DNA from: a virus
Strand: one strand, 5' to 3'
Length of the DNA: 64,000 nucleotides
IMG/VR virus record: IMGVR_UViG_3300002307_000027
Location: 51,970-115,969 of that record
Within the stretch, counting starts at the first letter, position 1, and the number at the start of each line of letters is the position of its first letter. The notes under the pieces are model-generated. The model saw nothing but the letters and a program-made list of their open reading frames with translations, was not told where the DNA came from and did not search any database. A program made the position numbers and the translations under genes. Below, one piece after another: positions 5,015 to 17,667 of this stretch.

Positions 5015-5250
5015 TGACTGACAAGACCTTTACCTTTACGATCGAACAGATCAAAGACATCTACCGTGCGGGTATCCGGCGTGGAGAGAATCAGCAATGT
5101 GCCTACGATTGGGGCACTCGTGTTAGTGGTGGCGAGTATGATGAATGTGTGGAGGCTATCCACGATATCGTCAACGAAGGCTTCAAGTGGGGCGATGTTG
5201 GTTATACCCACTACACTGACGTAGAAGATTGGTTCAAGGAGGCCAAGTGA
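5014..5250 (+). CDS. Hypothetical protein
   Basis: AGGAGG RBS, TGATG coupling. Confidence 0.75.
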   Translation: MTDKTFTFTIEQIKDIYRAGIRRGENQQCAYDWGTRVSGGEYDECVEAIHDIVNEGFKWGDVGYTHYTDVEDWFKEAK

Positions 5251-5402
5251 TGGACGAAGCAACCTATAGAGTCCTCGTAGAATGCGTGTATCTGATCTTT
5301 GATTCTACTGAAGGACCCGCCGCAACCGTCCTCACCAAACTGGTTGATCTAATCGTTGCGTATGAGGACGAACACTATCCTATGGATGAGGAGACTGCGT
5401 AA
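5250..5402 (+). CDS. HigA-type antitoxin N-terminal-domain-like mini protein (50 aa, no HTH)
   Basis: MDEATYRVLVECVYLIFDSTEGPAATVLTKLVDLIVAYEDEHYPM matches the HigA-family pattern ExxY...L..L..LIxAYExxHYP; AGGAGG RBS. Confidence 0.6.
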   Translation: MDEATYRVLVECVYLIFDSTEGPAATVLTKLVDLIVAYEDEHYPMDEETA

Positions 5403-8158: not shown

Positions 8159-8400
8159 TCGTGGAAACTGTAATGTGGGTATTCGTATGGTTATGCGGAG
8201 TTGGACTCTGCATAACCTCAGTTATCCTTTGGGGTAATCTTTTAGAATTAAATCAACAGGTAGAACGATTAGAAGCCGACGCTAGGAAAGATCTAGCTGA
8301 GATTAAAAGGCGAGAACATAGCGAAGCAGCACTAAGAGCGCAACAAGAAGCAAAACCAAAGATCGTTAAATCAATCTCTAAGAGAATGATGGTAAAATAA
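8152..8400 (+). CDS. Membrane-anchored coiled-coil protein
   Basis: Hydrophobic N-terminus; operon packing. Confidence 0.6.
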   Translation: MVIVETVMWVFVWLCGVGLCITSVILWGNLLELNQQVERLEADARKDLAEIKRREHSEAALRAQQEAKPKIVKSISKRMMVK

Positions 8401-8711
8401 TGGCAGAAGCTAGACAAGCTATCACAGCCGTAATCTATGATAGGCGTGGACGCAAGATCAGTGAAGGTCGCAATCACTATACCAAGAGTCACCCGTATCA
8501 AGCTCGCATGGCTAGAGAAGCGGGCCTACATCACAAGATCTACCTCCACGCTGAGATCGAAGCACTAGTCCGCCTGCGTGATTGGAGCCGGGCCTATAGG
8601 ATCGTAGTGGAGCGATATGCTAAGAGCGGGGAGCCTGCGCTGGCTAAACCCTGTCCTATCTGTCAACGGGCCCTCGGGCTCGCGGGCATTATTCACGTTG
8701 AGCATACTTGA
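8400..8711 (+). CDS. Zinc-dependent cytidine/dCMP deaminase-like protein
   Basis: HAE and PCPIC motifs; stop inside the -35 box at 8708. Confidence 0.8.
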   Translation: MAEARQAITAVIYDRRGRKISEGRNHYTKSHPYQARMAREAGLHHKIYLHAEIEALVRLRDWSRAYRIVVERYAKSGEPALAKPCPICQRALGLAGIIHVEHT

Positions 8712-9957: not shown

Positions 9958-10302
9958 ATGATGAAAGTTTGGGATTTCCTCGATAGCATCGATGATCGTA
10001 TTACCTCTTATGTAGCCAAAATGGAAGAGGTACAGCCCGAGGATATTGGTCTGGACCGCCGTAGTGCTTACCGCTTGTATGTGGATAAGGATCGTACCTG
10101 TATCGCAGTGGGCGAGATCTATGATCGCACACTCCAATATTACGGTGGGTTTGAGTATGTGGACAGAGAGTATCGCCGTGTGGTAGGCAACTGGGTGTTC
10201 TACTTTGCTGATAGCGAGCGGGTGCAGGGTCATTTGGATCACCTCAATGAGCTTCCTGAGCCCGAGGTAGCTGACGACAATGCTCTTGCTGAGGATTTTT
10301 GA
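9958..10302 (+). CDS. Conserved phage hypothetical protein (LQYYGGFEYV)
   Basis: Promoter 9896 plus GGAG. Confidence 0.8.
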   Translation: MMKVWDFLDSIDDRITSYVAKMEEVQPEDIGLDRRSAYRLYVDKDRTCIAVGEIYDRTLQYYGGFEYVDREYRRVVGNWVFYFADSERVQGHLDHLNELPEPEVADDNALAEDF

Positions 10303-10357
10303 TATGACGGGTTTTGCGAGCAAGCGTCTCATGGTCCAAGATAAAATGGAGAGTGGT

Positions 10358-10564
10358 ATGTCTACCGATTCACGCAAGCAGCTTTTGGAACAGCTGGAAG
10401 AGCTACTAGGCCAGGCGCTCGAGCTTCTGGAAACCAGCGAGGATCTGCCCGATGAAGCTGACACTATTTGGAGCTCAATCAATGACGCTTGGCAAACCAT
10501 TGATGAAGAACTCTTTGACATAGAAACCCAAAAAACCACAACGATTGAACGTGCAACCCATTGA
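10358..10564 (+). CDS. Hypothetical acidic helical protein
   Basis: GGAG RBS; stop inside the -35 box at 10561. Confidence 0.7.
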   Translation: MSTDSRKQLLEQLEELLGQALELLETSEDLPDEADTIWSSINDAWQTIDEELFDIETQKTTTIERATH

Positions 10565-10619
10565 CAAACCGTGTGACTGTGCTATTATAAACAGTAAGCA
10601 CAAAACAGAGGAGAGCGCA

Positions 10620-10748
10620 ATGCAAAAACAACGTAGTCCATATGCTAAAGCATTAGCGGATCCACTGTTCCGCAAGCGCATAGTCGCGGCCCGTAAGGGC
10701 AAAGGTTCATATACTCGTAAGCAGAAAGGCAACAAATGTCAGGACTAA
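10620..10748 (+). CDS. arfA: Alternative ribosome-rescue factor A (ArfA)-like protein, 42 aa
   Basis: ALADPLFRKRIVAARKGKGSYTRK versus E. coli ArfA [25 protein letters not shown]; own promoter and GAGGAG RBS. Confidence 0.8.
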   Translation: MQKQRSPYAKALADPLFRKRIVAARKGKGSYTRKQKGNKCQD

Positions 10749-11755
10749 TTTTCTTCAAAGAAGGCACTTATAATCTGCAGGGCAAGCCTGCGAGCGTAGC
10801 CAATATGATTTTTCCTCTCGTCGAGGACTTCCGTGCAGACAGCGAGGGCGGCGGTTATGTTACCGTTGATGCTCGCAGTGTCAAACGGTTTCCGGACCGT
10901 AACATACGCATCCGCGTAGCTGGCAAGGACAGCTTCATTCCACACAAGGGTACCGTTGAGCAGCATCTCGCAGAAGCTACTAAGAATGAAACGGATCTAG
11001 AGATTAAGGAGCGTCTGCGTAAGCGGTTCAGCATCCTTAGCGATATGACCCGTGCAGCGAAGAGTGGCGATGTCCGAGCTGTTATCGTTAGCGGTCCTCC
11101 AGGTGTTGGCAAGAGCTACGGTGTTGAGCAAGAGCTTGCCAAAGGTGATCTGTTTAACACTATCGCTAACAAGAAGCCCAAGTATGAAGTTGTCAAAGGT
11201 GCGATGAGCGCATTGGGCTTGTATATCAAGCTGCACGAGTTTAAGGACAAGGGCAATGTCATCGTATTTGATGATTGTGATAGCGTTCTGTTTGATGATC
11301 TTAGCCTTAATATTCTAAAGGCTGCGTTGGACACTAGCAAGCGCCGCACTATCAGTTGGAACACTGACAGCCGCATCCTGCGCGAAGAGAACATCCCCAA
11401 CCGCTTTGACTTTGAAGCTAGTGCTATGTTCATCTCGAACATTAAGTTCGACAATGTCAAGAGCAAGAAGCTCAAGGATCATTTGGATGCGCTTGAGTCA
11501 CGCTGTCACTATGTGGATCTCACTATTAACAGTGAGCGTGATAAAATGCTGCGTATCCGACAGATTGTTGAGGACGGTATGCTGCGTGATTACGGACTTG
11601 AATATGAGGCTGTTGAAGAGATCCTCAACTTCATCGATGCCAACAAGAAGCGGCTGCGTGAACTCAGTCTCCGTACTGTGCTGAAGCTTGCGGATCTACG
11701 CAAGAGCTTTGGTGAACGCTATGAAGATTATGCGGCAGTGACACTGTTGAAATAA
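10736..11755 (+). CDS. AAA+/P-loop ATPase
   Basis: Walker A GPPGVGKS, Walker B IVFDD, ALESR arginine finger. Confidence 0.9.
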   Translation: MSGLIFFKEGTYNLQGKPASVANMIFPLVEDFRADSEGGGYVTVDARSVKRFPDRNIRIRVAGKDSFIPHKGTVEQHLAEATKNETDLEIKERLRKRFSILSDMTRAAKSGDVRAVIVSGPPGVGKSYGVEQELAKGDLFNTIANKKPKYEVVKGAMSALGLYIKLHEFKDKGNVIVFDDCDSVLFDDLSLNILKAALDTSKRRTISWNTDSRILREENIPNRFDFEASAMFISNIKFDNVKSKKLKDHLDALESRCHYVDLTINSERDKMLRIRQIVEDGMLRDYGLEYEAVEEILNFIDANKKRLRELSLRTVLKLADLRKSFGERYEDYAAVTLLK

Positions 11756-17496: not shown

Positions 17497-17573
17497 GGAC
17501 TGGTAGCTCAATTGGTTAGAGCGTCGGACTCATAATCCGCAGGTTCACGGTTCAAGTCCGTGCCGGTCCACCA
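17497..17573 (+). tRNA. tRNA with CAT anticodon (Ile2-type or elongator Met)
   Basis: Cloverleaf with GGACTGG/CCGGTCC acceptor, CTCATAA loop, GTTCAAGTC T arm and encoded CCA; C4:G69 favours Ile2. Confidence 0.92.
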
Positions 17574-17584
17574 ACTACTGCTAT

Positions 17585-17667
17585 GCGGGCGTGGTGAAAT
17601 GGTAGACACAAGAGACTTAAAATCTCTCGCCCACGGCGTGCCGGTTCGAGTCCGGCCGCCCGCACCA
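17585..17667 (+). tRNA. tRNA-Leu(TAA)
   Basis: AGAGA-CTTAAAA-TCTCT anticodon arm, long variable arm, GTTCGAG, CCA end. Confidence 0.95.

Follow-up and report, generated by a model that had tools for sequence, protein, structure and literature searches.

A short phage-encoded member of the ArfA family, a candidate ribosome-rescue factor, in a fragment of a PA5oct-like jumbo phage

Introduction

A 42-residue open reading frame (P0001) at positions 10620–10748 (+ strand) of a 64,000-nucleotide stretch of viral DNA, here called the window, is a real gene and, as judged from its matches to Pfam family PF03889, to ArfA chains in the PDB and to a set of homologues, a true ArfA-family protein encoded by a phage, of a short type that we term mini-ArfA. 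ArfA (YhdL; PF03889) is known from Escherichia coli and other gamma- and betaproteobacteria, in which it is made from non-stop mRNA under the control of tmRNA. Here, we describe the homology of P0001, the integrity of the gene, the design of its promoter and stop codon and its conservation across phages, and consider how the protein may function.

The source virus

The window is part of an IMG/VR record of 115,969 bases with an estimated completeness of 32%. Proteins encoded in the window include a large terminase, a tail tube protein, a DnaB-like helicase, a UvsX-like recombinase and parts of tail fibres. The terminase is 55–56% identical to that of the Pseudomonas jumbo phage PA5oct and its relatives, and the fragment to which the window belongs comes from a PA5oct-like jumbo phage. 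A megablast search of phage records with the P0001 region gave no match. Searches of the 116 kb record, itself about 32% complete, for an RF-1 domain, Pth or tmRNA found none; the sole match to the tmRNA model was a tRNA-Ala that scored under the cut-off. A tRNA with a CUA anticodon, resembling an amber suppressor and labelled Pyl by ARAGORN, lies about 42 kb upstream of the window start (G000:C1:9490–9561, − strand). The recoding of TAG or TGA that such a tRNA might suggest was rejected, since ORF statistics lend it no support and TAG ends several long genes.

The mini-ArfA gene and its surroundings

The reading frame of P0001 runs from an ATG at 10620 to a TAA at 10746–10748 (42 codons plus stop), and its product is very basic, with Lys or Arg at 13 of the 42 residues. 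A Shine–Dalgarno sequence, AGGAGAG (10609–10615, + strand), is placed 4–6 nt ahead of the ATG, its AGGAG core (10609–10613) being 6 nt 5′ of the start. The same leader, including the Shine–Dalgarno sequence, is present in the nearest relative (L002, 90% identical). Sense codons of the two genes differ by five synonymous and four non-synonymous changes: residues 1–31 carry four synonymous and zero non-synonymous changes, and all four of the non-synonymous changes (4/4) fall within residues 32–42, a pattern consistent with translation of the gene and selection on it. The public annotation (P0002; 10545–10748, + strand) is a 67-residue reading from a TTG at 10545. We rejected it in favour of the 42-residue frame; it is probably over-extended by 25 codons, as it begins 5′ of the promoter and the homologues begin at the ATG.

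The promoter is of the σ70 type (10561–10588, + strand) and matches 11 of the 12 consensus positions, with a −35 box TTGACA (10561–10566), a 16-nt spacer that ends in TGC and so supplies the TG (10580–10581) of an extended −10 element, and a −10 box TATTAT (10583–10588). This near-consensus promoter ends 31 nt upstream of the P0001 ORF. The motif (TTGACA, N13, TG, N, TATTAT) has 26 copies in the window, where 0.18 would be expected by chance, and 24 of the 26 are on the + strand between 155 and 20089, approximately one per 0.9 kb; on the whole 116 kb record the copies are concentrated in one region of about 20 kb. We infer that this promoter-rich region is a typical early region read by the host polymerase, and call it early in that sense. 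The preliminary description had credited the 42-residue frame with a promoter of its own and a normal stop codon, and both are present, the promoter at 10561–10588 and the TAA at 10746–10748.

Upstream of P0001 lies an early gene of 94 residues (10280–10564, + strand) for which no Pfam family was found. Its TGA (10562–10564) sits within the −35 box of the P0001 promoter; as the gene ends inside that promoter, transcripts that read through from it probably include the ArfA gene too. No terminator was found between the two genes, nor on the + strand anywhere between 9000 and 13000. No stable hairpin was detected in or after the P0001 ORF (RNA fold z = −0.97).

Downstream, the ATG of an AAA+ ATPase gene (339 residues, phrog_1250; 10736–11755, + strand) lies inside the P0001 ORF, giving an overlap of 13 nt, and the two genes are probably co-transcribed and translationally coupled. 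The overlap is as the preliminary description had it. The link between the two genes is local: among 37 viral loci that encode relatives of P0001, the AAA+ gene is next to mini-ArfA only in L002, and with synteny so limited a functional link between mini-ArfA and the ATPase was rejected. The AAA+ protein shows 35–51% identity to proteins of PA5oct and of many T4-like Klebsiella phages that are labelled 'thioredoxin'; this label looks like a propagated misnomer, since Pfam sees AAA-type P-loop domains only.

P0001 is among just three family-matched early-region genes of approximately 24 tested, a gain in annotation for the window; for seventeen other ORFs of this region, no Pfam family reached significance. 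One ORF of 103 residues (8400–8711, + strand) has a weak, sub-threshold match to the zinc-binding region of cytidine/dCMP deaminases (E = 3.5e-4; 20.9 bits, where the cut-off is 25). Genes for tRNA-Met(CAT) and tRNA-Leu(TAA) are found at 17497–17667 (+ strand), inside the early region and 7 kb from the ArfA gene. A 50-residue ORF (5250–5402, + strand) was considered as a 'HigA-like' antitoxin partner against RNase toxins and rejected, as it has no Pfam match at E ≤ 0.1. A role in answering RNase-toxin defence, which the preliminary description proposed beside one after host mRNA decay, finds no support in the window. The neighbouring early genes are without recognisable families.

Family assignment

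The preliminary description had recognised an ArfA core in P0001 from the sequence alone, and the profile search confirms it. PF03889 matches P0001 with E = 3.9e-11 and 42.7 bits, above the Pfam cut-off of 25.5 bits, over profile positions 18–43 of 44 only; a canonical bacterial ArfA (P0125) scores 89.6 bits over positions 1–44. ArfA is the only Pfam family matched. A phmmer search of the PDB gave E. coli ArfA chains only (PDB codes 5U4I, 5MDV, 5H5U, 5MGP and 7OJ0; E of about 2e-5), and in PHROGs the protein falls into phrog_20887 (function unknown; E = 6.8e-6). NCBIfam is uninformative here, as no ArfA model responds even to canonical ArfA. Close relatives of 40–43 residues are present in metagenomes, the 37 viral loci mentioned above are from IMG/VR, and a profile search of 1.84 billion representatives returned 392 clusters (at 50% identity) with E ≤ 0.001.

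Comparison with E. coli ArfA

Residue n of the phage protein corresponds to residue n + 8 of E. coli ArfA, and the two are homologous over E. coli residues 19–48. In the E. coli protein, residues 2–16 form a minidomain by folding back onto the helix, which happens only when RF2 opens (PMC5378476; PMC8012679), folding of the minidomain being coupled to this opening (PMC5378476). Pro23 contacts A1492/A1493, while Leu19, Leu24 and Phe25 engage RF2 at Trp319 of its switch loop; residues 27–30 add a β-strand to RF2 and residues 31–48 fill the mRNA channel (PMC5378476; PMC8012679). Contact residues of E. coli ArfA that are kept in P0001 comprise Pro23, Leu24, Phe25, Arg26, Arg28, Val/Ile29, Lys34-Gly-Lys-Gly-Ser-Tyr39, Arg41, Lys42 and Lys44. 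The RF2-docking elements are retained at the sequence level (P0001 Pro15, Leu16, Phe17 and Lys19-Arg20-Ile21-Val22), and the basic tail of the phage protein, Lys26–Tyr31, Arg33, Lys34 and Lys36, equates to E. coli Lys34–Tyr39, Arg41, Lys42 and Lys44. The position of E. coli Glu30 is occupied by valine, and the histidine of the Lys-His pocket motif (His45) is absent.

The N-terminal minidomain, which in E. coli spans residues 2–18 and has Ile11 and Ala18 in its core, is incomplete in P0001: only six residues lie ahead of the helix, and positions 1–17 of the Pfam profile are unmatched. Lys10 of P0001 aligns with E. coli Ala18, a residue that packs against Ile11 and C1914 (PMC5378476; PMC8012679). 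Substitution of this alanine by threonine leaves E. coli ArfA able to bind the ribosome and to recruit RF2, with activation abolished (PMC8012679; PMC5378476). Because half of the minidomain is missing and a lysine stands at the Ala18 position, activation of RF2 cannot be carried over to P0001 by homology. ArfA and RF2 pairs also have low compatibility across species (PMC8012679).

At the other end, the C-terminus of P0001 corresponds to E. coli position 50–51. In E. coli ArfA, 46–48 residues are ordered in cryo-EM structures and a 1–40 truncation is inactive (PMC8012679), and removal of the last 17–18 residues leaves full activity (PMC5378476; PMC8012679). The tail of P0001 is long enough in these terms, since it ends past both the ordered residues and the inactive truncation. 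The description of the protein as 'pre-truncated' therefore holds for its C-terminus, which ends at about E. coli residue 50–51, but not in the sense of a shortened E. coli ArfA, since P0001 falls into a distinct subfamily and the first eight residues are missing as well. The design of the bacterial gene, in which a hairpin acting as RNase III site or terminator precedes the stop codon and the encoded protein has a hydrophobic tail, is not that of P0001; its tail has a strongly negative hydropathy and there is no hydrophobic C-terminal segment. With a true stop codon, P0001 cannot be controlled by tmRNA.

Taken as a whole, P0001 is like E. coli ArfA in its Pro-Leu-Phe-Arg patch, β-strand segment and KGKGSY-RK tail and in a length near that of the active truncated form. 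It is unlike E. coli ArfA in being eight residues shorter at the N-terminus, in having neither the hydrophobic tail nor the RNase III/terminator hairpin, and in being encoded by a virus and preceded by an early promoter.

Two other bacterial rescue factors invite comparison. ArfT from Francisella tularensis is a basic protein of 40 residues whose gene has a normal stop codon and is not controlled by truncation; it recruits RF1 or RF2 to non-stop ribosomes and so shows that this size and stop design are enough for a rescue factor (PMC6299226). P0001 resembles it in size and gene design only: ArfT is bacterial, has the tail KKGGSTNKK and is undetectable as an ArfA homologue. BrfA from Bacillus subtilis likewise depends on RF2 and places a basic tail in the mRNA channel, but its sequence is unrelated to that of P0001 and, like ArfA, it is made from non-stop mRNA.

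The mini-ArfA subfamily

Comparison of the homologues assigns P0001 to a large and distinct subfamily of mini-ArfAs (37–47 residues) that is found mostly in viromes and metagenomes. In an alignment of 55 short forms with nine canonical ArfAs, the short forms lack the first eight N-terminal residues and have Ala-Lys-Ala in place of the canonical Glu17-Ala18-Leu19. Numbered as in the phage protein, position 6 is Asn or Ser in 52/55 short forms (canonical Asn14), position 7 is Pro in 35/55 (canonical Ala15) and position 9 is Ala in 49/55 (canonical Glu17). Position 10 is Lys or Arg in 47/55, against Ala18 in 9/9 of the canonical proteins; position 12 is Leu in 49/55 (canonical Leu20) and position 22 is Val in 50/55 (canonical Glu30). 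Phe or Tyr at position 17 (54/55) and Arg at position 20 (45/55) are also kept, and over the whole set of 55, conservation of the N-terminal half matches that of the basic tail. P0001 has the hallmarks of the subfamily, namely an Arg-Asn/Ser-Pro-x-Ala-Lys-x-Leu start, a KGKGSY tail, a stop 9–16 residues past this motif and a viral context. When applied to short forms, PF03889 aligns from position 12 or 18 to position 43 only, with 27–46 bits.

Among the best 150 of the 392 cluster representatives, 71 are of 50 residues or fewer and 60 combine a short N-terminus with a short tail. All of the cluster members that were looked up come from metagenomes, and several had been named 'stalled ribosome alternative rescue factor ArfA' by JGI. 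The mini type is rarely found in the cellular genomes searched, with a pattern scan that was narrow. A scan of cellular genome contigs with the mini profile, likewise narrow in its pattern, gave three loci, all canonical long forms, and 401 sampled gammaproteobacterial genomes gave six matches, of which five were longer reading frames and one was a short form on a 1.7 kb contig. This last contig (L048; G063:C62:1–1753) carries a mini-ArfA-type ORF of about 39 residues with a normal stop and may be phage or prophage DNA.

Occurrence in other phages

Among the 37 related viral loci, 23 have a σ70-like promoter 47–71 nt upstream of mini-ArfA. Genes for tRNAs occur within the fetched stretch (up to 4 kb on each side of mini-ArfA) at 12 of the 37, a raw count without a baseline. 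In seven T4-like contigs (L019, L020, L021, L024, L030, L034 and L035) mini-ArfA directly follows clamp-loader genes (gp44/gp62-like) and regA (PF01818), the gene of the T4 translational repressor (e.g. L019:1661–3583). The next gene after mini-ArfA encodes a DUF932 protein in six of these seven; the contig of L019 ends first.

Several cultured phages also carry the gene. Brevundimonas phage Bambus has an annotated mini-ArfA of 39 residues (BAMBUS_05560) and Citromicrobium phage vB_CbaS-RXM one of the mini-ArfA type with 60 residues (gp10); both pass the Pfam threshold, and gp10 has been noted as ArfA in the literature (PMC8953757). Caulobacter phage Cr30 contains an unannotated mini-ArfA ORF (L043:1456–1608, corresponding to about 11139–11291 of KF301602.1, − strand) that scores 27.2 bits, above the Pfam threshold. 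The stop of this ORF overlaps the start of the next gene, and two genes downstream is one for an RNA ligase. The hosts of Bambus, RXM and Cr30 are Alphaproteobacteria, a class in which none of 2,376 genomes was found to have arfA (PMC11633108); PF03889 gave no match in a Caulobacter control genome. The pelagiphage HTVC027P encodes a PF03889 protein, gp30, that is reported to be highly expressed both early and late in infection (PMC12753301).

These phage ArfAs (RXM gp10, the Bambus protein, HTVC027P gp30, the Cr30 ORF and phrog_20887) share with P0001 an Arg-Asn-Pro-x-Ala start, a KGKGSY tail, a length of 39–60 residues and a normal stop. P0001 differs from them in coming from a PA5oct-like jumbo phage lineage and in an identity of about 50–67% over the aligned stretch. 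Phage ArfA genes have thus already been named in GenBank and by JGI and are mentioned in two papers, and P0001 is a further member; no functional study or experiment on any phage ArfA was found in the literature searched.

Proposed function

The reading that we favour, with moderate confidence, is that P0001 constitutively rescues ribosomes which have stalled on non-stop mRNA and does so by way of a release factor, the RF2 of the host. Its predicted steps, which include binding to the ribosome, recruitment and activation of RF2 and a benefit to the phage, would be as follows. The host RNA polymerase would transcribe mini-ArfA from the strong early promoter, and translation to an ordinary stop codon would free the protein from the tmRNA-dependent switch by which bacterial ArfA is kept off. 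The basic KGKGSY-RK tail would then enter the mRNA channel, left empty where a ribosome has stalled at the 3′ end of a broken message, with the Pro-Leu-Phe patch and the β-strand segment that follows it docking host RF2. RF2 would hydrolyse the peptidyl-tRNA, after which the ribosome, with no tagging involved, would rejoin the pool that translates phage messages.

The bulky Lys or Arg that is conserved at the Ala18 equivalent, together with the missing fold-back segment at the N-terminus, raises the alternative of a protein that plugs the channel or competes for it. By analogy with E. coli ArfA(A18T), which binds and recruits RF2 yet fails to activate it (PMC8012679; PMC5378476), such a protein would occupy the empty channel and perhaps hold RF2 closed without hydrolysis, thereby blocking tmRNA–SmpB tagging of phage proteins or disabling a tmRNA-dependent host response. 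We consider this unlikely. A simple plug has no need of the RF2-facing half of the molecule, and the conservation of that half, strong at those positions of the helix and hydrophobic patch which contact the switch loop of RF2, argues against one; trapped ribosomes would moreover cost the phage translation capacity too. Retention of Lys or Arg across hundreds of lineages looks like an adaptation rather than a defect, and ArfT demonstrates that 40 residues can activate a release factor (PMC6299226). That subfamily-specific residues sit exactly in the RF-activating region could instead reflect a different choice of partner, in which a simplified N-terminal module serves RF1 as well as RF2, as in ArfT, or the RF2 of hosts that have no ArfA. 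The threshold-passing mini-ArfAs in cultured phages of Caulobacter, Brevundimonas and Citromicrobium, the 0/2,376 alphaproteobacterial genomes with arfA (PMC11633108) and the lack of a PF03889 match in the Caulobacter control genome are in keeping with such a shift. It nevertheless appears distinctly improbable, as the Phe25 equivalent and the β-strand segment, the basis of RF2 specificity in E. coli, are retained.

So small and basic a protein, in an early region whose other genes are all of unknown function, might also be a ribosome- or RNA-binding peptide with a role other than rescue, for example in the shut-off of host translation, or else a decaying passenger without function. Either seems very improbable: the match to ArfA is specific beyond basic composition, extending to the DPLFR and KGKGSY blocks, the changes within the core are synonymous only, and a promoter of its own is kept with the gene in many unrelated phage contexts. 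RF2-dependent rescue is accordingly retained here as the preferred reading.

Conclusions

A broader proposal may be made for the mini-ArfAs, which we put forward tentatively, giving it only a modest chance of being correct. As a mainly virus-borne subfamily, they may activate release factors by means of a simplified N-terminal module, with Lys or Arg at the Ala18 site and no fold-back. This might provide constitutive, tmRNA-independent rescue even in hosts without ArfA (Alphaproteobacteria, for example), perhaps with a looser choice between RF1 and RF2, and might counter defences that cleave mRNA or tRNA.

The points most worth a bench test are the signature of the subfamily and its occurrence in phages of hosts without ArfA. 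How a peptide of about 40 residues works without half of the RF2-activating minidomain is testable in cultured phages, such as Cr30 and the Brevundimonas jumbo phages, whose hosts have no ArfA. If the protein is active, phages would carry an always-on ribosome-rescue factor that bypasses the tmRNA gate of bacteria, and mini-ArfA could define the minimal requirements for the activation of a release factor.
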